DNA from: a virus
DNA length: 64,000 bases
Virus record (IMG/VR): IMGVR_UViG_3300026549_000035
Location: 96,918-160,917 of that record
Strand: one strand, 5' to 3'
Shown: in pieces, positions 1-45,820 of the stretch
Numbering within the stretch: the stretch's first letter is position 1
Layout of the letters: each line of letters opens with the position of its first letter
Position numbers and translations under genes: made by a program
The notes under the pieces: generated by a model
What the model was told of the DNA's origin: nothing
The model's input: only the letters and a program-made list of their open reading frames with translations
Database searches by the model: none

Positions 1-495
1 TCTTAATTGTTTTATCTTGTTTTTTACATTTTCTATATGTTCTTTTTTAAATATTGCTTTTGAATATGGAATTGGAATATTTTGTAAAGCTTCTTCATTA
101 TAGTTTATTTCATCAACAAGCTTATTATATTCTGCAATTTTTTCTTTCATTATTTCTATAACTCTTGGATCAACATATTCATTATAGCATTTATTTAAAT
201 CAAATTTAGTAATACGATGCATTGTAGATTGTGAAGATACAAACTCAAGAAAACGATAACGCTCTGCTTCTACCCACATTTTATTAGAGCAAGTTAAATC
301 AAAATTAACTCTAATTCCAGTTAAAAACTAGTGATGTGCAGTATTACCAGTTTTAGTGGCATTAACTAATTTGGTTCCACGCTCAATATCTTTTTTTTCT
401 ACTTCACGCATACCAACTTCTGTTCTCATAGGATAACCAGAAGCAATAAGAGATTCTTCTAAATCATAGATTTTTACATTACTAACGATATCCAC
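1..495 (-). CDS. Hypothetical protein, 5' part; the gene's 3' end lies beyond the window start. Likely GTG start after an AGGAG RBS; 1 in-frame TAG.
   Basis: Manual minus-strand translation gives a long protein-like frame (VDIVSNVKIYDLEESLIASGYPMRTEVG...); RBS aggagag 7 nt upstream of the GTG. Confidence 0.35.
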
Positions 496-510
496 ATTAA
501 TCTCTCCTTA

Positions 511-1530
511 TTTTATACTATATCCAAAGTCTTTTGCATGAAAAAATTCCTACCAATAATCTTCTCGCTCATTTAATTTAGAACGTTCACACTCTTCAAC
601 AATTTCAAAAGAAAAATTTTCAACACCAAGAGAATACATAGCAGGATAAAGTTTATTACGTGTCCAGTCTTCTGCGCCAACACCACGTTTACAATGCTAT
701 TTCCAACGCTCGGCTATATTGGCACTTTGCCCTATATAACATTTTCCGCTATCTATATGAGTAATTTTATAAATACCAGTATGAATACCAGTTCCAACTA
801 CTCTACCAATCATATCAGTTAAAGGTTTTTCATAATAGACTTTATAAATTACCTTATTTAAAGGAGTTTTATCTCTTAAATAAGGTAATACTTCACGCAA
901 ACGTTTTATCTCAGCAATATCTTCATCAGTTAATATTAAACGATAAAAATCTTGTTGATTTTCTATCTCTTGGCGTCGTTTAGCCGCTTCAACAGCTACA
1001 TTAACATTTTTTCGTTCTTGCTCTAAAATAGTCTGAACTTGTGCTAATTCTTGTTGTTTAGAATTAATTTCTTTCTAAAATTCTAAAACACACTCTTGAG
1101 CTGTTTCAAGATAAATCTATTTTGTCTATTCTCTATCTTGTTCAAGAGCAATACTAATATTTTCAACCTCTTGGTCAAATGAAATTTGTGCGGCTTGGCG
1201 CGCAGCCTCGTAGAACTTTTCAGCTGCTTGCGCAGACTATTTTTCTAAATCATCGAGGCTGTTTTTAACTTCATCTCTTTTAGCAGAAATTGTATCATAT
1301 TCAGATTGAATATTAGCAACCTATCCCTTTAACTCATCTTCCTTTGTTTTTAAAATCTAATTTTGATAAATTAACTATTTATTGTTTGATTCAATCTGAT
1401 CATTTTCTTGTAAAGTTTTCTAATTCTACTAAATTATATTTTTCATAGTTGGTCTACAGACTAGATATATTATAAGTCCACCTAATCCAAGACCAAAAAT
1501 AAATAATAAAAGTATTAAAAATATTGTCAT
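511..1530 (-). CDS. Membrane-anchored coiled-coil protein with a C-terminal GIY-YIG (T5orf172-like) nuclease domain; about 12 in-frame TAG codons.
   Basis: N-terminal hydrophobic helix (MTIFLILLLFIFGLGLGGLII), a Q/E/K-rich coiled coil, and a C-terminal GIYKITHIDSGKCYIGQS...EDYWQEF motif. The track ORF 697..900 is its GIY-YIG piece. A terminator hairpin precedes the ATG. Confidence 0.55.
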
Positions 1531-1580
1531 AATACAAAAAAAGTGGGATGGAAATTAATCCATCCCACGCATATACTTAA

Positions 1581-1847
1581 TTATTCAGCGTCAGCATCGG
1601 GATCAAATGCCATACCAGCGTCTGTCAAAGAAAGGAACTTAACTGCCTTATGGGTACCATCCTCAAGCTCGATTTCAGCAGGAGTACGAACACCAAGACC
1701 TTTTCTTTGAATAGCAGAAGTAAAGATGCCATCAACAGAGCGCTTCTCAAGACCGAGAGCCTCAGCAACATCAGCAGCGGTAACATCTTGACCGTTAATA
1801 GTCTTTAAATAATTGAGTACTTTCTTAGAATTTTCTTTCATAGCCAT
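1581..1847 (-). CDS. Hypothetical 88-aa protein; noticeably GC-richer than its surroundings.
   Basis: Intact ORF with start and stop; a hairpin plus T-run terminator lies downstream at 1536-1575. Confidence 0.5.
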   Translation of the reverse strand: MAMKENSKKVLNYLKTINGQDVTAADVAEALGLEKRSVDGIFTSAIQRKGLGVRTPAEIELEDGTHKAVKFLSLTDAGMAFDPDADAE

Positions 1848-1939
1848 AATAATTTTTCTCCTTATAAATAATATTTTTTTCTTTTTTGGTAATTATTTTT
1901 TTTTACCTGTAAAAATTATATCAAAAAATTTTTTTTAAG

Positions 1940-2147
1940 TCAAGATTCAAGCTCCTGTTGAATAAGCTCATCTAATAGAAACATATCCTCTGGATCACTG
2001 ATTTTTGAACTTAAATTATAAATTTTTCTCTAAGCTTTAGTTACTTTTTCTTGATTTTCATTAGCTTGAATTACTTTTTCTAAATCAGCTATTCTTTTAG
2101 CTAACTTTCGTAATTCTCGTTTAGTCATTAACATTTAAAATTTTCAT
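1940..2147 (-). CDS. Small hypothetical protein with 2 in-frame TAG.
   Basis: Manual translation MKILNVNDQTRELRKLAKRIADLEKV...; RBS aagga upstream. Confidence 0.3.
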
Positions 2148-2191
2148 CCTTAATTTTTACAATTTCATTATACGAAATTTTTTTTATTTTG

Positions 2192-3007
2192 TCAACTTAA
2201 TTCTTCTAAAAATTCCGCTTCTGTGATGATAGGAATTCCTATCTTTTTTGCTGCAACACTTTTGACCGAGGTTGAAGCTGAGTCATTATTAATTAAATAA
2301 TTGACATTTTTTGAAATTGCAGAAACAATTTTGCCTCCACGATTTTCAATAAATTTTTGTAATTCGGCTCTGTTCTTGAATTGCTTTACAGTTCCAGTAA
2401 TTACATATTTTCTATCTTTTAATGGCAATTCATTTTCTTCTTTTTCCACTTTCTAAATAGTTAAAAATTTCTCTACTAAATTATCTGCTTCAGTATAATC
2501 AAAATTTAAAATAGCTTTTGATTTTTCTTCAGCAAATCCATAAAGAGTTGTAAAATCAAATCCTTCTTTAACAGCATTTCGAAAATCTTCATATGTAGAA
2601 AAATACTTGGTTATTTCTTTTGCAACATTTCTACCTATAAGAGGAATTCCAAGCGCAGATAAAAAAGCCTCTAAGCTACATTCCTAACTATCTTTAATTG
2701 ATTGTAAAATATTATCTACTGATTTTTTCCCAAAACCTGGTTTAACAATCCATTCTTCTTTATGTTGACTTAAAGAATAAAGATCAATAATATTATTTAC
2801 CCAATTCCATTCCATTAATTTTTCTAAAGTGGCTAAAGATAAACCTTTAATGTCTAATCCTTTTTTGCTACAGAAATGATTTAGACGATTAATAAATTTA
2901 CCACTACAATCTTGATTTGGACAATATAATTGATTAGAAGAATTTATAATAGTTTTTTCTCCACACACTGGACACACTTTTGGAATTTCAAAATAAATAT
3001 ATTTCAT
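2192..3007 (-). CDS. ligA: NAD-dependent DNA ligase, C-terminal fragment (Zn-finger, HhH, BRCT); at least 3 in-frame TAG read as sense.
   Basis: CPVCGEKTI...CPNQDC zinc finger; a BRCT-like VITGTVKQFKNRAELQKFIENRGGKIV segment; own RBS ggagat; start overlaps the HNH stop as ATGA. Confidence 0.7.
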
Positions 3008-3696
3008 TTTTTATCTCCATAATTCTTTAGTATTTTTTTCATATGATTTATCCAAAAATCTATAGAATAATCTAATTTCATTTTATTACAAAACTCACAA
3101 CATGATACGCAATTTTCAAAAAAATATCCTTCTTTGGAATTTACTCTATCAATACCCCGAGAATTCTAAGAAATATCTCCACAATAATAGCAAGGCTATT
3201 TAATAATAGCATAAAATTCGTCTTTAGTTAATTTAAAAGATAAATTACGCCTTTTAGCATTTTTTTTATAATAGGCATATTTATTTTCTTTTATATTGTA
3301 ATCATTACATTTCTTACACTTGTTGGTATAACCATCTAACTAAGCAGAATTTTTCCAAAAATTAATAATTGGTAACATTTGTTTACAACTATAACATCTT
3401 TTATGAGTAATATTTCCATCTGAATCAATCAATCGAAATTGAGAAGATTTTTTTCTAATTGTTTCTAATCGTGAACATCCACAATTGGTTGAAGTTCCAT
3501 TTTTTAATGTTCTTGCTGAAACCGCTTTTACAGTATGATTTTTACAATCACACTAACAAACCCATTTAGGTTTATTTCCATTATCATTTATAGTTCTATA
3601 TAAAACAGTCCATTTTCCAAATTTTTTACCAGTTAAATTTTCTGCTCTTCCTACAGATTTTTCTGGAAACTCTTTTTTTATAATGTCTAAATCCAT
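3004..3696 (-). CDS. HNH homing endonuclease inserted between the two halves of ligA; 4 in-frame TAG.
   Basis: Manual translation MDLDIIKKEFPEKSVGRAENLTGKKFGKWTVL...WVC-TAG-CDCKNH...PCYYCGDIS-TAG-NSRGIDRVNSKEGYFFENCVSCCEFCN shows the zinc-ribbon module plus an HNH motif. Confidence 0.6.
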
Positions 3697-4841
3697 TGTC
3701 CATTTTCATCCTTCGCTTTAGTTATTTGAGGAATTATTTGATTTTTCTTTGTTACATAAATTATTTGTCCTTTAAATGGACGTTCACCTAATAATTCTTT
3801 CATAATTTTTAAATTATGAAGTGATGCACGAGAAATTTCACTTCCATCTATATCTAAAGGTTCAAATATAGCAATTGGACAAATTTGACCAGTTCTACCC
3901 ATGCTCCATTCGATATCTTGTAATTTTGTCTCATAAGCTTCATCATAAAACTTATAAGCTATTGCATTTTTAAAATGGTGAGAAGTTTCTCCCAAACTTT
4001 TACCATATGCAATATCATTAAATTTAAAGACTATTCCATCTATTGGAATAGATTCTTCATAAGAAAGACTGGTTATTATTTGAACAACCTCTTCTAAATC
4101 TCGTTCTGGAGTTACACTATCACAGGGAACAATTTTAAATCCTAAATCAGAAAGTTTATAAAGTTTATTGAAAAAACTATTACTAGCACTATCTTCAAAA
4201 CCTTTTATAACTTCCCACGCTATAAAAGTTAATTTTCTTTTTTCACATTCTTTAGAATCTAATAATCTAATACTACCTGCCGCAAAATTACGAGAATTTT
4301 TATATTCTTTCTTAAAATCCTAAAAGTCTTTTGTTAAACAGACTATTTCACCATCAACAACAAGTTCTTTTTCATAATTTATTCTGTGTGGAATAGAAGG
4401 GATTACTAACGCATTATGTAAAATATCTTCTCCAATAATGCCATCCCCTCTAGTCTCAGCAGAAACTAATTTGCCATTTATATATCTTAACGAACAAGTT
4501 AACCCATCAACTTTTGCCATAGCTACCATTCGTCGATTATTAGAAAACGCAACCACACTATCAAGACTCTTGGTTTTTTCAAGAGAAAGCATTTTGTGAT
4601 TATGTTTTACTTTATCAAGTTGATTAACAACTTGATAGTTAACTTTTCGAGTGGGAGAATCTTCATAAGCAAAATCCATTGTAGTTTCAAAGTCTAAAAG
4701 AGTGAAATACATATCATCCCATTTTTTGTCACTTACTTCTGGATTTCCTTCATCATATTTTTTTGTCCAATAATTCAACTTATCTGTCATATAACGCATT
4801 TTTTCAAAAGTTGAATCACCCATATATGAAGTATCTATCAT
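3678..4841 (-). CDS. ligA: NAD-dependent DNA ligase, N-terminal fragment (adenylation plus OB domains); 2 in-frame TAG. Ends at TAA 3678-3680.
   Basis: AKVDG (the KxDG adenylation lysine), TRGDGIIGEDI, and the OB-fold tail. Track ORFs 4320..4841 and 3687..3995 lie in the same frame joined by TAG. Confidence 0.7.
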
Positions 4842-4892
4842 TTGAAATAATCTCCTTAATTATTATACTAAAAAATTTTTTCATTGTCAAAC

Positions 4893-5132
4893 CTATTCTT
4901 CTTTAGGTTCATCTTCTTCATCTTTCTTCTCTGGAGGAACTAATTCAGTAATTAATTTTGCTAAAACATTATATTTATCTGTTTTGCCAGTATGATATCT
5001 CTTATAGGTTCGAAAAAATTCTTCTTTAGTATCAGGATTATTGGCGATAATTTTACCGCCAATTAATCCATTTTTATTAGAAGGTTCATCAAAAAATTGA
5101 TATTCTCCAACAGAAATCAATAAATTTTTCAT
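4893..5132 (-). CDS. Hypothetical acidic 79-aa protein.
   Basis: Intact ORF; its ATG overlaps the gyrA TGA stop. Confidence 0.4.
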   Translation of the reverse strand: MKNLLISVGEYQFFDEPSNKNGLIGGKIIANNPDTKEEFFRTYKRYHTGKTDKYNVLAKLITELVPPEKKDEEDEPKEE

Positions 5133-7246
5133 ACTTTGCTTACCCCCGTAACAACATTTCCTTTTATAACAATATTTCCCATAGTAGTTTTAGAAGCTGT
5201 TTCTGGTGGTAAATCTTCAGCTTTTACACAAAGAGAACTCTTATCTCCACAAACTAAAATTATATCTCCATCTGAAACTAAGCAAGCTCCCGCAGTATCT
5301 GCATCTTTAGCATATATTGTTCCTCGTCCATTTCTAGCTTGAACTGGAAATGCAGACAATTTAACTCTACGTGCCAACCCACTTCTAGAGAAAAATGCAA
5401 TTGAATCATTAATATCACGAATTGGTAAAGCCGCAATAACTTCATCATCATCGTGAAGATTAATACCTTTATATCCCATAGTTACTCTTCCAGAAGCAGG
5501 GAAATCTAACCCCTTACATCTAATGGCATATCCATTTTTAGATAAAATAATAATATTTTCTTCATTTGCTAAAAAGACCGAAGCAATACTATCTCCTTCA
5601 TGAAGATTTAAAGCTTTTATACCGCCCTTTTTCTTAGTTCCAACATATTCCTCTAAAGAACTTCTTTTTACATATCCGTTTTTAGTTACAAATATTACAT
5701 ATTTAGCATCTGTATCTCTATAGATTGAGTAAATAACTTCAGGTCTTTCTCCTTGTTCCATAGAAACTAATGCTCTAACAGGAGTTCCTTTAGATGTATT
5801 AGTTCCTTCTGGAATATCATCAACAATTAATCGATACATATTTCCTTTATTTGTAAATATCATTAAACTATCTACTGTATTTGTTCGAAGAACCATTGAA
5901 GTAATATCATCTTGCGTTTTTATTCCTTTTCCACCGCGTCTCTGAGTTCTGAAAGACGTTGACTTAATTCTTTTAATGCTACCCCCGTCCGTGAGGACCA
6001 CAACACATTTTTCTGGTGGTATGGCAGCAATCTTTTTCTCCTCATTGTCTTTTGGCTCGGCAAGTTGTGTCAACTCCGTTCTTCTATCATCACCATATTT
6101 ATCTACAATATTTTGAAGTCTTTTTTTCAATTCATCTAATGGATTTGTTAAAATCGCATTAAAGTGTTTAATTTGTTCTTTCAACCCTTGAATTTCTTCA
6201 TTTAATTCAATCTTTTCAAGGTTTGCTAATTTACCAAGCTTCATATCTGTAATGGCTTGAGATTGCGCTTCAGAGAATTTATATTTCGCGCAAAGTTCTT
6301 GACGAGCGGCTGCCGCAGACTTTGATTGTTTAATTAACGCAATAATATTATCTATATCTTCTAATGCTTTTAATAAACCTTCATTAATTTCAAGCTTTGC
6401 TTTAGTTTTATTTAAATCATATTCAGTTTCTCTGCGGATACATTCATTGTTATGTTCAACGTAAATTTTACAACAATCTTTTAAATTTAATTCAGTAGGA
6501 GTTTTACCGACCAATCCAACCATATTATAAGAAAAAGATGTTTGTAAATCAGTATTTTTAAATAATTGAAAAATAGTTTTATTTAGATTAGCATCTTTTT
6601 CACATTCAAGGACTAATCTAAATCCTTTTTTACGAGTACTTTCATTTCGGATATGTTTAATTCCACTTACATCCCCAGCATCACAGGCTTTTCCAATTTG
6701 TTCCATAAGAGATTCAGTTCCTACACCATATGGAATTTCATAAAATATAATATTATTTCCTTCAATATCATATTTACCACGAAGCTTAATACTACCATGA
6801 CCAGTACGCATAATAGTTGGAATAATATCTTTATTAATAATCAATCCACCTGTTGGAAAATCAGGACCAGGTAACATAGGTTCTTTACCATCTATATAAT
6901 CAAAAATAGCTTGCGCTACTTCTCTAAGATTATGTGGTGCCCAATTACAAGCCATAGCAACGCCTATGCCTGCGTTTGGATTACATAATAAGTTAGGAAA
7001 ATAAGAAGGTAAAGTCACTGGCTCATCTTTAGTTTCAGAATAATTAGGAACAGTATCTACTACTCCTTTTTTCATTCCTACCAACATACCATCTTCTACT
7101 AAACGACTTAATCTTGCTTCAGTATAACGATAAGCCGCAGGACCATCACCATCTCGATTTCCTTTAGAACCATGAAAATCAATTAAAGGATAGCGCATTA
7201 CCCATTCTTGTGAAAGTCTAACTAAAGTTCCATAAATAGAACTATC
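5129..7246 (-). CDS. gyrA: DNA gyrase/topoisomerase II A subunit, exon 2 (ends at TGA).
   Basis: GyrA-like: AAYRYTEARL; a beta-pinwheel C-terminal domain; a 706-aa uninterrupted frame with no TAG. Confidence 0.8.
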   Translation of the reverse strand, partial: DSSIYGTLVRLSQEWVMRYPLIDFHGSKGNRDGDGPAAYRYTEARLSRLVEDGMLVGMKKGVVDTVPNYSETKDEPVTLPSYFPNLLCNPNAGIGVAMACNWAPHNLREVAQAIFDYIDGKEPMLPGPDFPTGGLIINKDIIPTIMRTGHGSIKLRGKYDIEGNNIIFYEIPYGVGTESLMEQIGKACDAGDVSGIKHIRNESTRKKGFRLVLECEKDANLNKTIFQLFKNTDLQTSFSYNMVGLVGKTPTELNLKDCCKIYVEHNNECIRRETEYDLNKTKAKLEINEGLLKALEDIDNIIALIKQSKSAAAARQELCAKYKFSEAQSQAITDMKLGKLANLEKIELNEEIQGLKEQIKHFNAILTNPLDELKKRLQNIVDKYGDDRRTELTQLAEPKDNEEKKIAAIPPEKCVVVLTDGGSIKRIKSTSFRTQRRGGKGIKTQDDITSMVLRTNTVDSLMIFTNKGNMYRLIVDDIPEGTNTSKGTPVRALVSMEQGERPEVIYSIYRDTDAKYVIFVTKNGYVKRSSLEEYVGTKKKGGIKALNLHEGDSIASVFLANEENIIILSKNGYAIRCKGLDFPASGRVTMGYKGINLHDDDEVIAALPIRDINDSIAFFSRSGLARRVKLSAFPVQARNGRGTIYAKDADTAGACLVSDGDIILVCGDKSSLCVKAEDLPPETASKTTMGNIVIKGNVVTGVSKV

Positions 7247-8158
7247 CATTTTTTTGTTATCGTAAAAGTTTTTTATCTTTTACTTCTTATACTTTTATTT
7301 GTATAAGTTCAGCATATCTTTTTAATTTGGTTTGCTAATTCCATTTTTCTATCTAATGCAACATCATTATCTTGATATAAATGAGATATTATTTTTGGAA
7401 TAGCATCTTTTGTAGAACGATATTCAATTTTAAAAGTATTATAATGAGAATATATTTTTAAAGGTTTAATATTTAATTGTTCTTGAAAATAATTCTATAC
7501 AAAAGATAAACATTCAAAAGAACCTACTAAACCAATTCCATTTAAGTTTTCTCTAATAAATCCATCTCCATCCCATAAACCTCTAATAAAATCTCTATAA
7601 TAAATTTTATCTATGGGTGGAATATGCTCTTTTCCACTTTTAGATTGTTCTACATTTAATTTTATCAAGGCATTTTTTATTTCTATTGAATATGTTGATA
7701 CATACCACTGAATATTTCCAGTTGTATTATGAATTTCACTTTTTAGCATAGTTAAATCTCCACCTAAAAAATTAATAAATTTTTCTAAATGATGCTTATC
7801 TTTATTTCCAAGTTTAATTCGCAACATTCTTCTGTCTATATTCAAATATCCATCTGCGATAATAAAACCTAACCAATAAGCTTTTTCCGCAGAATCTATA
7901 GTATCAAAAATATGCCTATTATATTCTTTCATGATAATTCCTCCAATATTAATATGGATGTTTTTACATCCTCACTAATACTGGAAATTATTATAAATAT
8001 TTTTAAAATTTTTGACCAAATTATCGCGGCCTCGTGGGTAGATTATATCTTTTCACTACCTATGCGTTGCCCCTGACTATACTTTGTATAGCCTTCGGTT
8101 CGGGTTAACATTTCAGCTTTCCCGCTTAATTCCGCGATTTACCCACGGCAACAGTTCT
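7247..8158 (-). mobile_element. Group I intron in gyrA, carrying a LAGLIDADG homing endonuclease.
   Basis: Exon 1 ends ...NWHPHG after a U; the intron ends in G (...atg) directly before DSSIYGTLVRL. A TAA stop follows the exon-1 read-through; flanks of roughly 60 and 225 nt are left for the RNA core. Confidence 0.6.
7309..7932 (-). CDS. LAGLIDADG homing endonuclease (two motifs), intron-encoded; 1 in-frame TAG.
   Basis: YWLGFIIADGYL and RGLWDGDGFI. The track ORF 7495..7932 continues through TAG to TGA at 7309. Confidence 0.7.
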
Positions 8159-8407
8159 ACCGTGCGGATGCCAGTTTGCCATAGTATTACCAACAATATT
8201 AGCGCATTTGACATGAGGTTTTTTAGAACTAAAGCCTTCATCATATGCGTCATAGAGAATTCTTTTTGCTACTGGTTTTAAACCAGTTTTTGCATCTGGA
8301 ATAGAACGGTCAGTATTAACAGCAACCGCATATTCTATAAAATTTGTTCCAAGTTCATCAACTAAATCAGTTAAAATCTCATTCGGCATTATAAGTTGCC
8401 TCCTCAC
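8159..8407 (-). CDS. gyrA: Gyrase A subunit, exon 1.
   Basis: IPDAKTGLKPVAKRILY...KKPHVKCANIVGNTMANWHPHG, the conserved GyrA N-terminus. Confidence 0.75.
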
Positions 8408-9020
8408 TATGTTCTTTAATGTATATCTTTCTTGGGGTAACCGCAGTTCCCATTAAATTATCAAATAGCTTTTTAGCAGCAGTTGCATCACTAATTGTAA
8501 CCTGCTTAATAATTCTCTGTTCTGGATCAGCTAATGTTTCTTCTGTTTCATCAACATCTAATTCTCCTAATCCTTTAAATCTATTCACAACATATTTTTT
8601 ACCGAAATTTTCTTTTCTATATTTATCTAATGCAATATCATCTTTAAGATATTGATAACCTTTTGAAGTAGTTATTTTATAGAGCGGAGGAACGCCCGCA
8701 TAGATAAAGCCATCTTCAATTAATTGTGGGCAGAAACTCCAAATAAAAGTGTAAAATAGATTTTTGATATGCGCTCCATCAGAATCAGCATCACTCATAA
8801 TAATAATTTTTCCATATCTTATTTTATCTTTATCATAAACAACTTTCATTGTCTTTAAATCAATATCTAATCCAAAAGCGTCAATCATAGTCATAATTTC
8901 AGCGTTCTTTTGAATTTTATCAACGGTTGCTTTATAACAATTTAGTATTTTTCCTCTTACTGGAAGAACTGCTTGATATTCATTATTACGTGCTTGTTTT
9001 AGGTTACCTGAAGCACTATC
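8379..9020 (-). CDS. gyrB: Gyrase B subunit, exon 2 (Toprim and C-terminus).
   Basis: DSASGNLKQARNNEYQAVLPVRGKILN...IIIMSDADSDGAHI...RFKGLGE. Confidence 0.75.
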   Translation of the reverse strand, partial: DSASGNLKQARNNEYQAVLPVRGKILNCYKATVDKIQKNAEIMTMIDAFGLDIDLKTMKVVYDKDKIRYGKIIIMSDADSDGAHIKNLFYTFIWSFCPQLIEDGFIYAGVPPLYKITTSKGYQYLKDDIALDKYRKENFGKKYVVNRFKGLGELDVDETEETLADPEQRIIKQVTISDATAAKKLFDNLMGTAVTPRKIYIKEHSEEATYNAE

Positions 9021-10126
9021 CGTGTTTATCTTATATTTCTATAAGCACTGACTAACTCTTCACTCCGGTTTGTCAAGCCATCATCGTGTCCTCTATTTCC
9101 AATCACGTATCAATAGTAATTGTACTCTCCGTCTCACCGGAGATAGTCGATACAGCTTATTTTATATCTTTATAGGTTTTTCTCGTTATGGCATTATATA
9201 CGGTGCTCCAGGCTCTATCTGGAGCATATTTTTGCCAAATCTATTTAGGACTAATACCATTATCATAATCATATCTCATTTGTTTTACTTGTTCTTCGGT
9301 AAAACATTTTTTATTATTTGCGGCTACCTCAGAAGAATTTGCCTTTGCATTATGAGAATGCCAGTATTTATTTTCTTCAGTATGATACTCTGGATAAATA
9401 TTTTTCCAAGTATCAAACCACCAAACCTTCTAAAGACCTCTTTTTGAAATTTTATCTTTGTATTCTTCATAAACTATTTTGAATGGAATATGAGCATTAT
9501 AACATTCTCTAATATATCTTACATCTTCCTCATTCAATAATGCTCGACCATTTTTTGAACCAATCTAACTCCTATTTGGATTTTCATCTCCACCTGGAGT
9601 AGCATTATATCCATTGGTATAAGAATTATAATAATTTATAAAGAATTTTTCCATCTAATCAAGAAGTTCTTTAGAATATTCTTCTGGAGATAATGTTGCG
9701 ATAATTTCATAATTAAAATTATCAAAACCATATTTTCTTACTGCTTGATGAAATTGACTATTATAGTCATTTGCTTTATCATTATAAACAGAAGATTTAT
9801 GATTATATTGACGTCTTTCTATATCAATACTCTATCCAATATAACATTTATGATTTATTTTATTTTCATATTTATAAATTCCTATCATATCACTCTCTCC
9901 CTTCATTAAGATATAAAGGAGATACTGATACGATTTACTGGTTTTGTCCTAAAGATATAAAATCTTGCCACGGGATTGCCTTCGCCTAAACATATTTTGA
10001 CATATATGTATAACGGTAAGGTTTCCCCGTTAGCCTGCGGTTTATCAAAAATTCCTAGGAATTTTTCTTTTTCCACAAACCCCGCTGATAAAGCGGTAAA
10101 AAGGATTAGGGCAATAGTTTTCACTT
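9021..10126 (-). mobile_element. Group I intron in gyrB, carrying a GIY-YIG homing endonuclease.
   Basis: Exon 1 ends ...YITEG then a TGA read-through. Exon 2 starts exactly at the DSA of the universally conserved EGDSAGG motif, and the intron ends in G. Confidence 0.6.
9161..9905 (-). CDS. GIY-YIG homing endonuclease (intron-encoded); 4 in-frame TAG.
   Basis: GIYKYENKINHKCYIG-TAG-SIDIERR; the TAG falls at the invariant Gln of the YIGQS motif. Confidence 0.7.
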
Positions 10127-11398
10127 ACCCTCAGTTATATATATTTCACATTTTTTACGATCTTTACTAAAACAATCTGCCAGTTTAGAATCAAATTTTA
10201 ATGCTTTTTCTTTTTTATTTTGTTTCTCACGAATTGCATCTCTAGCTTTTGCTGCCGCTTCGCGAGCCTTTTTAGCCATTTTTGCTTTATCTGCGATTAT
10301 CTTAATATCTTTTTCATTTGCTGCCAACCATATACGAAGCTCTTCTGCAATTGCCGCTGTATATGGTGTCATTTCAAGTTTAGTAATACGAGTTTTTACC
10401 TGAGCATCATATGCAACATTTGGCGCAGTGATATTAAATACAATATACAATCCTTCTTGGATATCATCACCAGAAAGATTTCCATCACTATCTTTTAACC
10501 ATTTTTTCTCTTTAAAAAATCTATTAAATTCTCTTGTTAAAAGAGCTTTAATCTGAGTAATATGAGGTCCAACAGAAGTTAAACCTGTATTAACATATGG
10601 AACCATTGTCATTGAATAATTAGATGTATAAGTCATAACCATATCAATTTTATTTTTACCATTTTGATAATTTAAATTAAAACGATTATCATATCCAATT
10701 AATTCTTTATTTGCAACAGCGTCATCTACTAAATCATTTAATCCTTTTTCTGAAAAATAAGTTGTTTTTTCGCCAGAATTATTTAATTCAATAGTTAGAC
10801 CTGGGCAAAGACAAGCGATAGTTTTAAAAAGATTTTTTACTTCTTGAATATTTACTTTTGGATTAGTAAAAAATTCTTCACTTGGTTGCCACTGAACTAA
10901 AGTTCCAGTAGTATTATTTTCCCAAGCTCCAGATTCTCTTTTCTAAAAAACTCCTTCTTTAAACCATAAATGCTCATATTGTCCATCTCGATAAGTAATT
11001 ACTTCAAGCCAATGACTTAAAAAGGTTGTAATTTTACTACCAATACCAAAAGAACCTAAAGAAGTTCCTTCATAGGTTCCATCTTCACGATATTTTCCTG
11101 ATGTATTTAATACGCTAAAAGCAGCTTCAAGAATTGTTTTTCCATCATCTCGAAAGCTATTTGGAATAAAACCTTGTCCATTATCTTCTACGATACAAAC
11201 TTTATCAGCAATATCTATTTTAATTTTATTACCATGTCCTAGTCTAAATTCATCTACAGCATTAGAAAATATTTCTACTAATAACTATGTAGAATAAGTG
11301 GTATCTCCTGCGTAGACCCCTGGTCTAAGACGAGTAAACTCTAGAGGTGAAAGAGATTCGATACTTTCTTCATTATATAAAGTTTTATCTTGTATCAT
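10127..11398 (-). CDS. gyrB: Gyrase B subunit, exon 1 (ATPase and transducer); at least 1 in-frame TAG.
   Basis: MIQDKTLYNEESIESLSPLEFTRLRPGVYAGD...EIFSNAVDE...LADCFSKDRKKCEIYITEG. Confidence 0.7.
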
Positions 11399-11449
11399 TT
11401 TATTTCTCCTTTAATATTCATTATTTTCTATTTTTAAATCTATTTCTTC

Positions 11450-11635
11450 CTAATTAATAACCATTCCTTCAGTATATGCTAATCCTAATATTTCACATTC
11501 TTTAAATTCATTTTGTATAACTTTCATATATCGACATACTTTATCAGATGGAAAAACTGAATTACCATCTGATTTAAAAGGCTCTTTAATTAAAATAACA
11601 TTATTAGGATAAAAAATAGTTTCTAAGCTTTTCAT
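11450..11635 (-). CDS. Hypothetical 61-aa protein.
   Basis: ORF with an RBS. Confidence 0.35.
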   Translation of the reverse strand: MKSLETIFYPNNVILIKEPFKSDGNSVFPSDKVCRYMKVIQNEFKECEILGLAYTEGMVIN

Positions 11636-11691
11636 TTTTTTCTCCTTGTTTTTATATTTATATTATAACATTTTTTTATATTAAATGCAAG

Positions 11692-11919
11692 TTATTTTTC
11701 TGGTTTTATAGATAACAAATAATTATATACTTTTTCCCAATCTTTAAGCTGTATTTCTAATCCCTGTGGAACGGTAAAAACTGCGTTATTAGGAAAGAGT
11801 TCCTTTAAATCAGTATGAATCTTTTCTATTTCTTCTAAGTCAAAATTTTCGATTTGTGGCTTTACTAAAACAATATCATTAGGTTTAATATTAATTGTTT
11901 CTAAAATATATTTTTCCAT
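11692..11919 (-). CDS. Hypothetical 75-aa protein.
   Basis: ORF with an RBS. Confidence 0.4.
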   Translation of the reverse strand: MEKYILETINIKPNDIVLVKPQIENFDLEEIEKIHTDLKELFPNNAVFTVPQGLEIQLKDWEKVYNYLLSIKPEK

Positions 11920-11943
11920 TCACTTTCTCCTTCCTGTAGCTAA

Positions 11944-12360
11944 CTAATCTGCTACTTCATTCCATATGATATTATTATGTCCTTTTACTTTATATATTTC
12001 TATTTGATTTCCATTTTGTAGATGTTTAAAAAACGGAATAATTAAATCTAAATTTTCTGGAGTTTGGTTATCAGATTTTAACCAGCCTCTTTTTTCCCAA
12101 GAGAACATCCAATTAGTTAAAGTATTTACGCAATATGCGCTATCAGAGTAGACTGTGAGAGGTTTTTGACCTGCGGCCGCAGGTTCTCCATATTTTAAAA
12201 AAGCCCATAAAATAGCTTTTAGTTCTTCTCTATTATTAGTTGTGTTTTTACTTCGTTCACTATAATAAGTGATAGGTTTTTCATTATCATCTAAGACAAC
12301 AACTCCAAATCCTCCTGGACCGGGATTACCTTGACAACTTCCATCAGTATAACAAATCAT
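11944..12360 (-). CDS. rnhA: Ribonuclease HI.
   Basis: YTDGSCQGNPGPGGFGVVV...REELKA..., the RNase H fold motifs. Confidence 0.8.
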   Translation of the reverse strand: MICYTDGSCQGNPGPGGFGVVVLDDNEKPITYYSERSKNTTNNREELKAILWAFLKYGEPAAAGQKPLTVYSDSAYCVNTLTNWMFSWEKRGWLKSDNQTPENLDLIIPFFKHLQNGNQIEIYKVKGHNNIIWNEVAD

Positions 12361-12767
12361 TAGAAAGGAAAATCCTCCTTTTTCTTTTCGTCTTTTATAT
12401 GAACAATAGATATTTTTATATCATCTGAGATTGCTAACACTCTATTAGAACCATTAATAAAAGTTTCATAAATAGCATCAAGAGGATTTTTTATTAATTC
12501 TACATCTTCATTTTCAGAGAACTATATTAATATAATATCCTTGTCTTTATTAAAATTTAATTCTTGTATATCCATTTTTTTCCTCCAAATTAATTGTCTT
12601 TTTATTAAAATTTTTAATATAATATTTTTAGAGTTTAAAAATACATATTTACTTTTATATTATTATTATATTAAAAAATTTAATAAAAATCAAGAGAAAA
12701 AAAATAAAAGGATTAGAATAAAACAAATTTAAAATTGAATTATTCTAATCCTTTATTCTATTAATTA

Positions 12768-14414
12768 TTTACATAAAGCTGAGAAAGTGTTTTTCCCTGC
12801 AATACCATCTGCATATAAGCCTTTACTGTTTTGATAAGACTAAACCGCAGATTTAGTTCCTCCTCCAAAGATTCCATCAAATCCATTTGTTGAATAACCA
12901 TTACAAATTAAAAGACCTTGTAAAGTTTTAGTAATATTTCCCCAATCTCCGTATTGAATATTTACTATTGCATTATTAGTTAAATTTCCATATTGTCCAT
13001 CAACCGCAAGTCCAGCTCCAAATTGTTCATTAAGTTCAGTTTGTAAAGCTTTTACTAAAGCAGCTTTAGTTAAAGGACCATATTGTCCATCAATAGAAAG
13101 ACCAGTGTTATAATTATTATTAAGCCATCTTTGAACTTCTGCAATAGAGGGGTCTCCTTCGTCATTATAATCATAAGAAGGTGTTTCATCTGAAGAAGAT
13201 GATTGTCCATACTTTGGACGACAGCAACAAGAAATATTAGATTTATAACGAGTCTTTAATTGAAAATCATCACATTCTGTTCCGCCATTATTAGCTCCAA
13301 TACAAGTAATAGTTCCATCATTATTTACAGCTACGCAAAGCTCAACATGGTCAAGAGTATTATAACCAAGAGAACTGGCTGGCCAGTAAGAAGAACGTTC
13401 TTTACTCCAAGAGAAAATTACCAAGTCTCCTGGTTGCACATCGTCTGGGCCATATAATTGTCCTGCATTATAAAAATTTTTACATAACGAGCCGCAATCA
13501 GCTACTTTTCCTCCTGGAATTAAATCAAAAGCTCCTGCTTTATAGAATAAATACATCATTCCAGCGCAGCAGCAAGCCACGGCATTAATACTATCATCAA
13601 AGCCACCATACCAATACATAATATCACAGCAGCTACCATGTTCATCATGATTTAATAAACTATAAGCGGTTTTAATTACAGTATCTTCACTGATTTCATT
13701 TTTTATAATTGTTGAATTACTTGTAGAAGAATCAGTTTCTTTTTTATTAATAATTGATGGATAATCTATATAGGCTTTATTTTTATCAATAGTTCCTATT
13801 CCAGAAATAGAATTGCTTTCAAGAACATTAGTTTCTCCACCATATTGCCATAATCCTAATCTATTATATTTATATAAACTAGGACTAGAACTCCATTGAG
13901 CAAACCAACAATCATAATCCTTTTGGATGTGTTCAGAAACCATATTATCAAGAACTGAGTATCCAGTGTATATCATTGGATAATATTCTAAATCTTTTAG
14001 ACCATCAAGAACAATAGTTGATACTTTTGTTAAATTACTTTTATTCCAGCCTCCGTTTTTAGATACATAGTTAGAAGGTTCAATATCTAATGCTATTGGT
14101 AAAGTTGGATAATGTCCTTTTTTCGCTTCTTGTCTAAGAAGTCTATCAATGTGTGCTAATTCACTTTTAGCTTCTTGTTCAGAGCAAGCATATGAGAATA
14201 AATATACTCCCCAAGGCATATCAAGCGCTTCTGCTTTTGCGACATTAGTAGCAAAATATTCATCATCTTGAGATGTCATATCATCTCCGTATCCACATCG
14301 AATCATAACCCAATCAAAGCCAGCGTTTTTAATTGTTTTAAAACTAACATCCCCATTAAATTCAGAAACATCTACACCTTTTGTATTTTTAATATTAGCC
14401 ATATTATAATTCAC
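12768..14414 (-). CDS. Endolysin: GH25 muramidase, CHAP domain and three peptidoglycan-binding repeats. The third repeat lies beyond a TAG at 12840.
   Basis: N-terminal GH25 motifs (GVDVSEFNG...DWVMIRCGYG); a Cys/His CHAP segment; and QRWLNNNYNTGLSIDGQYGPLTKAAL repeats. After the TAG the frame continues as SYQNSKGLYADGIAGKNTFSQL. Confidence 0.75.
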
Positions 14415-39443: not shown

Positions 39444-39467
39444 TAAAATTATTTAATTAGTTCGCTT

Positions 39468-40611
39468 CGCGAACTAGATATTTATCACTCATTAACATTT
39501 CTAATGTTATATTATCTCTTTCCCAATATGGGATACGAACTAATGGAATATTATGAGATAAAGCATATTCATTCTTTTCTTTATCTCTTTGTTGTCTTTC
39601 TTTAAGAGAAGAGGATTTTTCCCATATATTATTACAAACTTCAAAATGCTATCTACCATCAAATTCAATAATACGAGAAATTTGATTATTTTCTATTATA
39701 ACAAAATCATATCGTTTTTTTGGTAAATCTGAAAAAATATATTCTTGTTGAAATTTTATATCATTATCTTGTAAAATTTTTTGAATATTTTTTTCTCCAA
39801 TAGAATAATTAATACAACCACAAGATTTAGTAACACCTCGTCTTAAAGAAACTCCATTAATAATTTTCTAATTTCCACAATCGCATTGACATAAATAATT
39901 ATAACTTCCATCAGAATCTTTTCCTGCTTGTTTTAAAACTATTAATTTTCCAATTCTTTGATTAATAATATTAATAGTTTTAGCTTGTGATATTGCTTCT
40001 ATTCTTTTACAACCACATGATTTTATTTTTCCAGAAACTAATTGTCCTCCTGCTACATAATGAATATTGCCACAATCACAATTACATTTCCAAATATAGT
40101 TAGAATTTTGTTTTTTATTTGTTTTTGATATTGCTATTAATGAACCAAACCTTTGGTTAGTTAAATCATGAAAAGTATTTTTTCCCATTTTTTTTGCATT
40201 TTCTTTTCTTAAACAGCCACAAGATTGAGTTATGTTTTGAACTAAATTTTTTGAACAAATGTCACATTCATTTCCACATTCACATTTACAATGCCATATT
40301 GCATTTCCATCTTTAGTTCGTTGTTTTATTAAATATAAAACTGTTAATTTACCAAATTTCTAATTTGTTAAATCTTTAATTTTTTTTCCTTTTAAATGTT
40401 GAGATTTTAATTTTTTACTACATTCAAGGCAAGCAATACGTTTTTGATCTATACGAATTTTTTCTATTGTACCACATGTACACTATGCCCACCAATAAGT
40501 TTTTTTATTTTTTATTTCTGCGGGTTTTAAAATTATAAACTATCCTCGAGTTTCTCCAGAATAATCTTTCATTTTAGAGGTTAAAGTAATTGTAGGTAAA
40601 TCATTAATATT
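39468..40611 (-). CDS. Homing-endonuclease-like protein: multiple zinc-ribbon modules plus a Vsr-like PD-(D/E)xK domain; many in-frame TAG.
   Basis: Contains track ORF 39868..40188 (FGSLIAISK...WKCNCDCGN...SCGC). C-terminal RYDFVIIENNQISRIIEFDGRQH...VRIPYWER. Confidence 0.5.
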
Positions 40612-40698
40612 CATTAAAAATTTCACATCCTTTTATTTTTCTATAGGATATAAAAATTAAGGGTAAAACATTAATCTGTTTTACCCTTAAAAATTTAC

Positions 40699-42252
40699 TT
40701 AATAAATACAGGAATATCTTTCTTCATTAAGTTTATCAAACATTAATGTAAAAGCGTTTTTATTTTGCATCACTTGTTCAAAAAGGTTCTGACTAAATCC
40801 AGAAATAAACTGAACATGACCTTCAGCTTTCATTGGAATATTATCTTGACGTGCGTCTAAATTCCAGAATGTAATACCTGGCATCTCATATCCTGCATTA
40901 TGCCAACGTTTTTCAATAGTTTCAAAAAGTGTCTCATTTGCAACACAATTCTCTCTACCATAGCTCCAGCGGTTAAAGGAAGTAGGACCGCCGCATACGC
41001 AGTTATTAAATTCCATATCACTCAAAATAATAACTTGTTTAGGTATATCTTCTTGAGGAATATGATTTTTAATTACAAGGTTAAGCATTTGATCAAATAC
41101 AGATTCAATGTTAGTGCTTCCACCCCAATCAGCCTTAGCAATTCTATTTACTTTATCTACAAAATCAACGCCTTCTACTTTAATAAAATCAGGATGATTG
41201 CTAAAAGTAAAGAAATGATTTGCAAAAGGTCCTGAATTATATTCTGCACAATACATACCAAGAGAAATAGCAACCGCCATGGGAGTTCCATACATACTTC
41301 CACTAGTATCTACAACGGCAATGCCATTGAAAGCATAACCATTCATAACATCATGAAGATTCTCCCAATATTTATTAATCATAAGACGCTCGACGTTATC
41401 AAGATCTTGACTTTTATCACCATAGCCGTAGCCATAACCCCAGCGACCAAAAGCCATAGCTTGCTTAGTTACTTCATAAGGATAAAGAGCCTTGGCGTTA
41501 ACCTTAGTGGTCTTATCCTTTGCGAAGTTTTCATAAGAAACTACTTCCTTCTCAGACTTCATGCGTTCAATGTCATGACGAGCAAAAGCGTTTCGATAAA
41601 TCATACCTGCGCGAGAAGGAATCTTATCGAATTCGATTTCATCCCACTTTCCAGCAGACATAAGCTTCTCAAGAACGCGAATACGTCCACGAAGAATAGA
41701 CAAAGTCTTACGATATTCACGATGACTCATATTCAAATAAGTGCGAGTCTTATTTGCAAGTCTACGTGATTCAAGTGAACTTGTATTTTCAGACTTCAAC
41801 CACTTTGCAAGCAAAGAAGGGGTCTTACTTTGAACATCAAGAGCCAACTGGTCTTTCATAATCTTAAAAGCGTCCTTTTCAAGGGAAGTCCCTACAAAGA
41901 CATAAAGGTCATCCCATCTCCGATATTCTGGAATATATTTGAGATTGCGACGCATTACTTCAGGATGTTCATGCGCAAGCCATTTTGCAATTATACGAAA
42001 AAAACGTCTTTCTCCTTGACCTCCTCTAATATCTGCGATATAAAAAAGACATTTCATCGCATAAGTCTCATTCTCTTCAAAAGCTTTTTTAAAGAGATTG
42101 ATACAGTCAACATCGCTTCTTGTGCGATAAGATGCGCCAAGAGCAAACAAGTCAAGCAAACCATTCATAGTTGACTTATAGGTTAAGGCTAAATTCTCAG
42201 TATAGGTGAGATTTTGCTTATTATCCAAAGCAGTTACAAAACGATTACTCAT
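40699..42252 (-). CDS. rsr: Ro60/Rsr-like protein: an alpha-helical TROVE-type N-terminal region plus a C-terminal vWA domain with a MIDAS motif.
   Basis: A 517-aa uninterrupted ORF. Roughly 300 aa of helical region, then GIAVVDTSGSMYG (a DxSGSM MIDAS motif) ...ISLGMYCAE...ILSDMEFN. A 240-nt leader begins at promoter copy 5. Confidence 0.55.
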   Translation of the reverse strand: MSNRFVTALDNKQNLTYTENLALTYKSTMNGLLDLFALGASYRTRSDVDCINLFKKAFEENETYAMKCLFYIADIRGGQGERRFFRIIAKWLAHEHPEVMRRNLKYIPEYRRWDDLYVFVGTSLEKDAFKIMKDQLALDVQSKTPSLLAKWLKSENTSSLESRRLANKTRTYLNMSHREYRKTLSILRGRIRVLEKLMSAGKWDEIEFDKIPSRAGMIYRNAFARHDIERMKSEKEVVSYENFAKDKTTKVNAKALYPYEVTKQAMAFGRWGYGYGYGDKSQDLDNVERLMINKYWENLHDVMNGYAFNGIAVVDTSGSMYGTPMAVAISLGMYCAEYNSGPFANHFFTFSNHPDFIKVEGVDFVDKVNRIAKADWGGSTNIESVFDQMLNLVIKNHIPQEDIPKQVIILSDMEFNNCVCGGPTSFNRWSYGRENCVANETLFETIEKRWHNAGYEMPGITFWNLDARQDNIPMKAEGHVQFISGFSQNLFEQVMQNKNAFTLMFDKLNEERYSCIY

Positions 42253-42965: not shown

Positions 42966-43146
42966 TATTTTCTTTTCCAAGACGGCTCAAAATATTTTTC
43001 GGAATCGAACCGAATCGCTTTATTTTCCAGACAAAGTGTGAAACCAAATCACTATAATATTCTTGAAAGAAAATTTGCTGTATCCGTCTTTATTATTTAT
43101 TATTTTTTATTTTCTATATATATTATATATTATTTTTTTATAAAAA

Positions 43147-43860
43147 TCAATTGATATTTTTATAATCAGAACTATGGAATGGTAAATTATATCCTTTACA
43201 CCATTTTCTAATAGTGTTATCTGATACATTAAATAATAGTCCAACTTTAGAAAAATTTCCTTTATTCTATAAAAGAATTTCTTTTAATTCTTTTATAGAA
43301 GGTCTGTTTTTTACTTTTCTAATTCTCTTTTTTTCACAATTCATACATCTAGTAGCACCTTGAGAAATTTCTTTTCCACAATCACAGCATAAATAAATTT
43401 TCTTTTGTCTATTTTTTATATTTTTACTACAAAATGTATCTAATTGCCTATCGCAATTTGGACATACCCAACGTAAATTTTCTAATCTATCATCAGTATT
43501 TATTCCATTAATATGGTCTAATGTTAGAGTTAATTCTTTACCATTCCAAAAAGGTTCCTAACCACATATTGCGCATTTATATTTAGTATAATTTCCTTTT
43601 ATATACCATCTTCTTAATACAGATTGTGAAGCGGTAGAATTTTTAATAAAAATATTTTTTTCTGTTCTTTCTATCTTTTCTGGTTGTAAAAAATGTTCTA
43701 ATGAAATATTCTATTTTTTACAATATTCAATAATTATTTTTGCTGGTCTACTATTATTACTATATCCTAATTTTGATTGTAATTCTTTAATAGAATTACT
43801 TTCTTTAACATATTTTTTTAATAATTCTAAATCACATTTTTCTATATATGAATTAGCCAT
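43147..43860 (-). CDS. Free-standing HNH endonuclease; 3 in-frame TAG.
   Basis: LDHINGINTDDRLENLRWVCPNCD and several Cys4 clusters. Confidence 0.6.
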
Positions 43861-43968
43861 AAAAATTCCTCCTTTATTATCTTCTATAATAATTAAAGAT
43901 TAAAGAGGTAAAATTATAATAACTCGACCAAAAAATTATATTTTTATTTATTTTTTGGTCGAGTCGTT

Positions 43969-44043
43969 TGGCGCCGGTGCTGGGAGTCGGACCCAGACAT
44001 GCGGTTTTAGAGACCGCCGCACTAACCGTTATGCAACACCGGA
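43969..44043 (-). tRNA. Amber suppressor tRNA (anticodon CUA), probably Gln-accepting.
   Basis: TCCGGTGTTGCATAACGGTTAGTGCGGCGGTCTCTAAAACCGCATGTCTGGGTCCGACTCCCAGCACCGGCGCCA: anticodon loop CU-CUA-AA, G73, weak 1:72 pair (both Gln-tRNA hallmarks), CCA encoded. Promoter copy 7 sits immediately upstream. Confidence 0.75.
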
Positions 44044-44058
44044 TTATATATATCTCTT

Positions 44059-44100
44059 ATTTTCTATATATATTATATCAAATTTTTTTATAAAAATCAA
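44059..44100 (-). promoter_or_regulatory. Sigma70-like promoter repeat (copy 7) directly driving the tRNA-CUA suppressor gene.
   Basis: On the minus strand, TTGATTTTTATAAAAAAATTTGATATAATATATATAGAAAA, i.e. TTGATT-N17-TATAAT. Confidence 0.6.
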
Positions 44101-44261
44101 GTTTTGGTTGCCAGAGCGTCAACTCTGGCAACGCTCCCAACTTATTGGCGTAAGAAGGGTTTTTCGTGTTAATCTCGGGAAACACCGGTCGCCGCCTTTT
44201 CAAGACCGCTTCCAAAACCCGCTAGTACTAACATATATTAGGAATTATAACCTAATATATC

Positions 44262-44336
44262 TGGTACGGTGAGCAGGACTCGAACCCGCATAAGGTAGAT
44301 TAGAAATCTACTGCCTATCCTTTAGGCTACCACCGC
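44262..44336 (-). tRNA. tRNA-Arg (UCU).
   Basis: Cloverleaf with loop UU-UCU-AA; T-loop TTCGAGT; CCA encoded. Confidence 0.7.
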
Positions 44337-44726
44337 AAATAAAAATTAAGAATAATGCTCCTCAGCATAGCAATTTGCACATAATAATTCACATTTATCA
44401 ATTTCTTTATATAAAGAAAATCAAATTAATAAAGATCTTCACTATATAATTCATATTCGTGTTTATCACGTTTATATTGACGAGTAACTGCGCTTAATTG
44501 ACCATTATTCATTGCAACTTCAAATGCTTCTTCTCTTGTAAGAAATTCATTTTTAGTATTTATGAAACCTTGTTCAATTTGACTCATACCAATTTTAATT
44601 CCTAAATCATGAAGTATTGAAAAACCATCGCCATGACGACAACAAGGTATTACTACATCTGTTTCTTTAATTTTTAAAGCTGCACAAAGAATAATCATTT
44701 ACATTTTCCTTTTTTTTCTTAATAAT

Positions 44727-44819
44727 TGGCGCCGACTCCCGGACTCGAACCGGGACACCGTTTACACGATTACTGGCGGTTTTCAAGGCCGCTGCCTTAC
44801 CAGTTAGGCTTAAGTCGGC
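44727..44819 (-). tRNA. tRNA-Ser (UGA), class II.
   Basis: GCCGACT acceptor, 3-bp D stem, long variable arm, loop CU-UGA-AA, G73. Confidence 0.7.
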
Positions 44820-45393: not shown

Positions 45394-45468
45394 TGGAGCC
45401 TCGGGACGGATTTGAACCCCCTTTAGCAGATTACTAAACTGCCGTTCTACCAATTAAACTACCGAGGC
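45394..45468 (-). tRNA. tRNA with an atypical anticodon region: anticodon AGU (Thr, A34) with a U31-U39 mismatch, or alternatively a 9-nt loop.
   Basis: GCCTCGGTAGTTTAATTGGTAGAACGGCAGTTTAGTAATCTGCTAAAGGGGGTTCAAATCCGTCCCGAGGCTCCA. Confidence 0.45.
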
Positions 45469-45735: not shown

Positions 45736-45820
45736 TATTTTAGCATTGTACGGATGCTTATAAAATAGTTTGTACGTTGTAGCATAATCCATATGGCTTT
45801 ATACTCACTACTCGATTATC

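Follow-up and report, generated by a model that had tools for sequence, protein, structure and literature searches.

How does a phage come to carry its NAD-dependent DNA ligase (LigA) as two open reading frames (ORFs) on either side of a third, and is the interruption a spliced intron, an intein or an independent mobile gene? The question is raised by positions 2,192 to 4,841 of a viral DNA stretch of 64,000 nucleotides (nt), here called the window, which corresponds to positions 96,918 to 160,917 of IMG/VR record IMGVR_UViG_3300026549_000035. We consider it highly probable that this ligA is a gene in pieces: a free-standing PacI-like HNH homing endonuclease gene lies in the linker between the oligonucleotide-binding (OB) and zinc-finger domains (the OB|Zn linker), the parts are translated separately, and the endonuclease gene belongs to a mobile block. 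The locus is composed of the following features, listed with the tRNA gene that is needed to read them.

4841..3678, minus strand: ligA-N, 387 codons from ATG 4841 to TAA 3680..3678, with two in-frame TAG codons (4322..4320 and 3689..3687); it encodes a putative domain Ia, the adenylation (nucleotidyltransferase) domain with KVDG and the OB fold, and ends 10-14 residues past the OB motif ...IIPQI.
3696..3004, minus strand: middle endonuclease ORF, 230 codons from ATG 3696 to TGA 3006..3004, with four in-frame TAG codons.
3007..2192, minus strand: ligA-C, 271 codons from ATG 3007 to TGA 2194..2192, with two in-frame TAG codons; it encodes the Cys4 zinc finger (CPVC...CPNQDC), HhH and BRCT domains and starts 11 residues before the zinc finger.
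3707..3713, minus strand: Shine-Dalgarno-like AAGGATG of the endonuclease gene, inside the tail codons of ligA-N (AKDENGQW).
3018..3015, minus strand: Shine-Dalgarno sequence GGAG of ligA-C, 7 nt 5' of its ATG.
43969..44043, minus strand: suppressor tRNA with anticodon CUA, which would read the eight in-frame TAG codons of the three genes.

If TAG is taken to encode an amino acid, the three ORFs fall in three different frames. The LigA domains do not lie on a single polypeptide: ligA-N stops at TAA 3678, a 693-nt ORF follows, and the C-half is in another frame. Compared with contiguous alleles, the insert measures ~700 nt, of which the endonuclease ORF takes up 693 nt. This ORF has the marks of a free-standing gene, with its own ATG (3696) and AAGGATG, and it overlaps both neighbours: 19 nt are shared with ligA-N, and the tetranucleotide ATGA with ligA-C. 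The first-pass annotation had described an adenylation plus OB half ending at TAA 3678, a middle gene at 3004..3696 with four TAG codons that all but fills the gap, and a C-half that restarts in another frame with its own ribosome-binding site (here GGAG at 3018..3015) and an ATGA overlap; rechecking of the ORFs found all coordinates and TAG counts correct.

TAG was treated as a sense codon because the window encodes a CUA tRNA, because TAG readthrough lengthens many ORFs across the window, and because, of the endonuclease's four TAG positions, three align with columns that are predominantly Q in its homologs. Standard-code ORF calling fragments the locus into pieces that all end at TAG. The suppressor belongs to a cluster of 33 tRNA genes (42989..62316, all minus strand). 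Comparing it with the other tRNAs of the phage was uninformative as to the amino acid inserted at TAG: its nearest relative among them is tRNA-Ser(UGA), at 75%, and it has no similarity to tRNA-Gln(UUG). Since the suppressor is unlike tRNA-Gln, TAG is assigned to glutamine from the protein alignments alone.

Between them, the two ligase ORFs make up an entire LigA. At significance far above chance expectation, Pfam recognizes the adenylation domain (DNA_ligase_aden, PF01653, 1e-48) and OB fold (PF03120, 3e-18) in ligA-N and the BRCT domain (2e-9) in ligA-C, where the HhH models score just below their gathering cut-offs. Along the NCBIfam profile TIGR00575, ligA-N covers positions 4-378 and ligA-C positions 389-652 (1e-51), each half scoring below the cut-offs of this full-length equivalog. 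The break therefore lies in the short OB|Zn linker; nothing was lost there, the whole length of the LigA profile being accounted for by the two halves. Concatenated, they give one uninterrupted alignment to residues 12-655 of Thermus filiformis LigA (1DGS), in which the KVDG motifs coincide, so that the catalytic Lys is kept, and CPVC...CPNQDC aligns with CPEC...CPNPLC, retaining the four zinc-finger Cys. In the N-terminal domain Ia region, profile matches begin at model position 2-4 and the 1DGS alignment at residue 12. The ratio of nonsynonymous to synonymous substitution rates (dN/dS) between the window and a closely related locus, L001, is 0.34-0.43 for both halves, as computed by the simple NG86 method on AT-rich sequence. 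From the intact catalytic and zinc-binding residues, the dN/dS values and the fact that numerous lineages, as well as cultured T5-like phages, have kept both halves, we infer that both halves are functional; the ligase is presumably expressed as two polypeptides.

The middle ORF was identified from PHROG matches, its motif and its predicted fold. Neither Pfam nor NCBIfam yielded a family for it at E ≤ 0.01-0.1, and a precomputed Pfam domain was present in none of its homologs. Matches were found to PHROG 1035 ('endonuclease VII', 1e-18) and PHROG 374 ('HNH endonuclease', 1e-13). Across an alignment of 43 members, the motif C-x-Y-C ... G-I-D-R ... N ... C-C-x-x-C-N-x-x-K does not vary, its invariant residues including C169, C172, C200, C203, D183, R184, N195, N204, Y171 and Y191; the canonical HNH His of the DH motif is replaced by Arg (GIDR). 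In the AlphaFold2 model (mean predicted local distance difference test score 93), strands 181-184 and 196-199 are followed by a helix at 201-207. The top and only significant Foldseek match in the PDB is the restriction enzyme PacI (3ldy, E 5.8e-5), with Cas9 HNH domains next, and PacI is also the sole, marginal match of a PDB sequence search (E 0.044). PacI has in common with the window protein a Cys-rich beta-beta-alpha-metal core that lacks the canonical His, an HNH variant that has two zinc sites in PacI (PDB 3LDY). It differs in being a 142-amino acid (aa) restriction enzyme and not a homing endonuclease, whereas the window protein has an extra N-terminal Cys-rich region of ~130 aa, and the global TM-score is low (0.32/0.49). 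In the PacI paper, a Tyr is said to initiate cleavage. By its motif and its predicted fold, the middle ORF is thus an HNH-superfamily (beta-beta-alpha-metal) nuclease of a PacI-like variant, preceded by an N-terminal Cys-rich module. The earlier label 'HNH' is right at the level of the fold, as the PHROG matches, the motif and the model indicate, but not as membership of the curated Pfam and NCBIfam HNH families.

More remote members of the endonuclease family have two copies of the N-terminal Cys-rich module (~60 aa, GKxFGxWTVL...WxCxCxCG...SCGC). The module also occurs as tandem repeats in three other TAG-rich ORFs of the window and is possibly a DNA-binding repeat common to several mobile nucleases.

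27058..27825, minus strand: ORF with repeats of the Cys-rich module.
28737..29639, minus strand: ORF with repeats of the Cys-rich module.
39457..40614, minus strand: ORF with repeats of the Cys-rich module.

Comparison with related phages shows that the interruption is polymorphic. Among the 23 related loci retrieved from IMG/VR, ligA is contiguous (639-652 aa) in 18, and four carry an HNH or GIY-YIG gene at the same linker; the remaining locus, L016, ends at the contig end. The contiguous ligA of related phages had been proposed as a comparison at the outset, and it places all split alleles at one linker. The gap of L017, L018 and L020 holds a homolog of the HNH gene, and that of L001 a different gene, which Pfam assigns to GIY-YIG. 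A GGAG or AGGA with an ATG lies at the same position of ligA-C in all five split IMG/VR loci (the window, L001, L017, L018 and L020), and the halves, which are in different frames in the window, share a frame in L018 and L020. In L017, a further ORF (7816..8106, 96 aa) separates the HNH gene from ligA-C, and its stop overlaps the ligA-C start region.

In these alleles, the endonuclease is much better conserved than its host gene. The HNH proteins of L018 and L020 are 84% identical (dN/dS 0.13), but their LigA-N and LigA-C are only 47% and 46% identical. At the nucleotide level, identity between the two loci is ~40-47% upstream, rises to 82-92% from ~240 nt 5' of the endonuclease start, stays at 80-95% to the end of the HNH gene, is ~70% for a further ~110 nt of ligA-C and then falls to ~50% (40-55% outside the tract). 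A similar tract is visible in the window, which is ~95% identical to L001 across ligA except in one patch, where it is closer to the HNH-bearing L017.

3962..2908, minus strand: approximate mobile patch, which runs from ~270 nt before the end of ligA-N through the endonuclease gene to ~100 nt into ligA-C.

Every HNH-bearing allele has the ligA-N tail AKDENGQWI, which encodes the AAGGATG and ATG of the endonuclease and is therefore part of the cassette. On a tree of the ligA-N core, a crude neighbour-joining tree without support values, L018 falls among contiguous alleles, yet its junction block is of the L020 kind; with midpoint rooting, the split alleles are basal. Site polymorphism, the discordance between endonuclease and host-gene identity, and the co-conversion-like tracts support the classification of the window-type endonuclease as a free-standing homing element, and site-specific cleavage by the protein would be expected. 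The same signatures, homing with co-conversion of flanks, have been described for T4 endonucleases (PMC2988022).

The arrangement is widespread. The endonuclease family comprises at least 50 clusters at ≥45% identity, and all three members sampled at this level lie in a ligA gap, in phages whose surrounding genes differ; a relative of 32% identity is not located between ligA halves. Most of the closest ligA-C homologs (91/120) are stand-alone proteins of ~270-290 aa. Such stand-alone C-halves form at least 80 clusters, and ~80 of these 91 proteins start 9-14 residues before the zinc-finger CxxC. The L001-type GIY-YIG version recurs on 11 contigs found through ligA-C; an IMG/VR search with the GIY-YIG protein of L001 found it in ligA only on the contig of L001 itself. 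A third unrelated endonuclease, a NUMOD4+HNH_3 protein of 170 aa, occupies the same gap in L117 and L118. In L024 and L026, the endonuclease gene contains four and two TAG codons, respectively, and the flanking ligase halves contain none, a distribution that suggests movement of the cassette between recoded phages. Independent public assemblies (P0001 and P0121) contain proteins that match the endonuclease and LigA-C at 98-99% identity. Among cultured phages, blastn of the region returned only a short ligase match in Clostridium phage c-st.

The GIY-YIG cassette (L001 5290..5400, L114 2852..2880) opens with an 18-nt near-duplicate of the adjacent upstream ligA-N sequence, ATGATTATTCCTCAAATT versus ATGATTATTCCAAAAATT, encoding MIIPQI / MIIPKI. 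Both lineages with the GIY-YIG gene have kept this near-duplicate, which may have been left by the insertion or by a donor exon.

Two groups of known systems resemble this locus. In T4-like phages, free-standing endonucleases split Aeh1 nrdA (mobE), T4 39-60 (mobA) and gene 43 of Aeromonas phage 25 (PMC2988022). As in these cases, a free-standing HNH or GIY-YIG gene splits an essential DNA-metabolism gene, two separately translated polypeptides would have to reassemble, related phages have contiguous genes, and flanks are co-converted (Friedrich et al. 2007; PMC2988022). The window differs in its host gene, LigA, in its endonuclease, which is PacI-like HNH with GIDR and not of the T4 Mob type, and in that the element resides in a TAG-recoded phage and itself has TAG codons. 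For NrdA and gp43, the reassembled enzyme has proved to be active (PMC2988022), whereas the window ligase is known from its sequence.

The other comparison is with T5 and other Demerecviridae, in which subunits A and B of an NAD-dependent DNA ligase are annotated (PMC3632103; PMC3326045). In T5, these are dnlj1/dnlj2, 'LigA subunit A/B' (AAU05253/AAU05254). They are likewise separately translated genes of the replication cluster, split at the same OB|Zn linker: T5 subunit A ends in ...RAGGVIPCIVERVYD* and subunit B starts with MKIEIPTQCPSCG, against ...KKNQIIPQITKAKDENGQWIQTL and MKYIYFEIPKVCPVCG in the window. The same linker split is kept across cultured T5-like phages. However, the T5 gap is a ~200-nt spacer with predicted early promoters and no endonuclease, and in Vibrio relatives of T5 it holds small unrelated ORFs; Pfam found no families in the gap ORFs of Vibrio phage phi 3 and 70E37-2, nor in that of L017. 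T5 subunit A is also shorter (323 aa), and sequence identity between T5 and the window is only ~25%. The annotation papers state no link to a homing endonuclease (PMC3632103; PMC3326045). Our literature search found no paper on an endonuclease-split NAD-dependent ligase. The window ligA is a new example of the known genes-in-pieces phenomenon, at a break point long annotated in T5.

Could the insert instead be a self-splicing group I intron with an HNH ORF, whose removal restores a one-piece ligase? Such intron-encoded homing endonucleases are known from phages, as in T4 td (I-TevI) and SPO1 DNA polymerase (I-HmuI), and, like the ligA element, they home into DNA-metabolism genes at a conserved site and co-convert the flanks. 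The idea gains some weight from the adjacent gyrase genes, which appear intron-interrupted and resemble this type, so that the phage probably hosts introns.

8379..11398, minus strand: gyrB, interrupted within the Toprim EGDSAGG motif.
5129..8410, minus strand: gyrA, interrupted after ...ANWHPHG (about 8150) and resuming at DSSIYGTLVRLSQ (7249..).

Exon 1 of gyrB ends in ...CEIYITEG near 10124, and the frame resumes without a start codon near 9050 (DSASGNLKQ...). The insert of ~1.07 kb contains a GIY-YIG ORF (9993..9157, six TAG codons) with non-coding flanks of ~130 nt and ~100 nt and, unlike the ligA insert, looks like a true self-splicing intron. The gyrA insert is probably another intron: it measures ~0.9 kb, has a LAGLIDADG ORF (7932..7309) with non-coding flanks of ~215 nt and ~60 nt, and is followed by an exon (DSSIYGTL...) that also lacks a start codon. 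In the relatives L024, L026, L114 and L117, gyrA is contiguous (781-791 aa). The contrast with these inserts, with their missing start codons and non-coding flanks of 60-215 nt, strengthens the free-standing reading of ligA. In ligA, the ORF fills the whole insert, overlapping by 19 nt at the 5' side and by ATGA at the 3' side, and no non-coding sequence is left for a group I core. Room for an intron core had been denied from the start, and the extent of the ORF and the separate signals of each half uphold this. Moreover, ligA-N has its own stop, ligA-C has a ribosome-binding site and ATG conserved in all split loci, the halves' frames differ in the window and agree in L018 and L020, and the gap accommodates a second ORF in L017 and promoters in T5. 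An Rfam scan of 1..13000 at E ≤ 10 found no intron or other relevant RNA, a weak negative that is not decisive for ligA, as the probable gyrA and gyrB introns were missed too. Taken together, we judge an intron in ligA to be very improbable.

Two other arrangements were considered and rejected. An intein does not fit three different frames and halves that extend only ~10 residues beyond the LigA profile per side, and a split intein is excluded because nothing is missing or added in the concatenated LigA alignment. Programmed frameshifting or bypassing was rejected on the anatomy and on the independent recurrence of the split.

The history of the split is a separate matter. The first-pass annotation suggested that ligA had been fractured by a free-standing endonuclease and is expressed as two polypeptides; the anatomy and the signs of mobility speak for a free-standing homing element, which may have caused the original fracture. 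Alternatively, the ligase may already have been encoded by two genes in a phage ancestor, as in T5, with endonucleases colonizing the gap later, which would give the same anatomy and expression by a different history. This is possible, though on balance unlikely. PacI-like HNH, GIY-YIG and NUMOD4+HNH_3 endonucleases, three unrelated families, are found in the same gap, Demerecviridae are split at the same linker without any endonuclease, and the midpoint-rooted ligA-N tree has split alleles at its base; the same reservation has been voiced about gene 43 of Aeromonas phage 25 (PMC2988022). However, LigA is in one piece in cells and also in three clades of close phage relatives, so a split ancestor would call for several precise re-fusions. 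The mobile tract itself holds the ligA-N stop and the ligA-C ribosome-binding site and ATG, so homing alone can split a contiguous allele, and L018 nests among contiguous alleles yet has the L020-like junction block.

It is improbable that the insertion inactivated the ligase, leaving one or both halves as decaying remnants in a phage that relies on host LigA. The dN/dS of the halves is only moderately low, LigA-N by itself would lack the zinc-finger and HhH DNA-binding domains, and ligase function is deduced from sequence. Yet both halves are intact ORFs that keep the catalytic Lys and the zinc-finger Cys, intact halves recur in many lineages separated by a synonymous divergence (dS) above 1 and in the numerous stand-alone C-half clusters, and cultured T5-like phages maintain the same split. 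L018 and L020, at a dS of ~0.6 since they shared the cassette, have also lost neither half. Finally, frameshifts or a chimeric join in a metagenome-derived sequence could mimic a split over three frames, but an assembly or sequencing artefact has a practically negligible probability: it is effectively refuted by dozens of independent contigs, as well as cultured phages, that have the same architecture, and by the near-identical proteins in P0001 and P0121.

The reading of ligA as a gene split by a free-standing homing endonuclease has points against it as well. Three unrelated endonuclease families and the endonuclease-free T5 gap fit later colonization equally, and the tree that bears on this is crude. 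The dN/dS values denote moderate constraint only, and reassembly of the halves into an active ligase is proposed from conservation and precedent only. The endonuclease has Arg in place of the canonical His and goes unrecognized by Pfam and NCBIfam, its nuclease activity being a prediction, and on introns the Rfam result counts for little for the reason given above.

Under the gene-in-pieces reading, expression would start from a promoter upstream of the cluster.

4862..4890, minus strand: sigma-70-like promoter, TTGACA-17-TATAAT, 12/12, directly 5' of ligA-N (consensus match only).

This promoter (4890..4862) likely drives the cluster, from which ligA-N, the endonuclease gene and ligA-C would probably be co-transcribed; a consensus search found no minus-strand promoter as good inside the ligA cluster. 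Three separate translations would follow, with ligA-N stopping at TAA 3678, the endonuclease starting at its ATG inside the ligA-N tail, and ligA-C starting from its own GGAG and ATG. All three proteins would depend on the TAG-suppressor tRNA of the phage. The endonuclease gene, the ligA-N stop and the ligA-C start signals would constitute one mobile block, spreading between phages by double-strand-break repair (homing) and carrying ~250 nt and ~100 nt of flanking ligase sequence. Because the block carries both stop and start signals, homing into a contiguous allele would make that allele split. An active enzyme would then form by non-covalent reassembly of the two ligase polypeptides, as in T5-like phages and Aeh1 NrdA.

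Some further observations concern the surroundings of the cluster. Perfect or near-perfect TTGACA-17-TATAAT promoter-like sites lie at 2167..2195 and 1915..1943 (minus strand), directly 3' of ligA-C and before the next small genes. Nearby, the ORF at 508..1530 (minus strand; 340 aa, 12 in-frame TAG codons) has a hydrophobic segment at its N-terminus, a long region that is rich in Q and E and resembles a coiled coil, and at its C-terminus a GIY-YIG-like motif (GIYKITHIDSGKCYIGQS); GIY-YIG domains are not usually fused in this way. Across the window, genes differ in their number of in-frame TAG codons: there are none in several long ones (the gyrA exon 5129..7249, 30743..33214, 40699..42252 and 23532..24917), and 5-12 in others.

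For annotation, the locus implies that gene callers that use the standard code, or that expect a single ligA gene, will mis-annotate such loci. LigA becomes the fourth essential replication enzyme among the phage genes in pieces that are made or maintained by free-standing homing endonucleases, and the comparative evidence for mobility of its cassette is unusually clear. LigA has a natural split point in its OB|Zn linker, a fact of use both for understanding how the domains assemble around DNA and for split-ligase engineering. In a broader interpretation, which we hold to be evenly balanced between right and wrong, the split state of LigA would be a selfish trait transmissible with one homing cassette, the OB|Zn linker would be a convergent hot spot for at least three unrelated endonuclease families, and the two-subunit ligase of T5 would be the scar left after loss of an endonuclease. 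For T5-like phages, the case puts forward a specific origin of the two-subunit ligase that can be tested.

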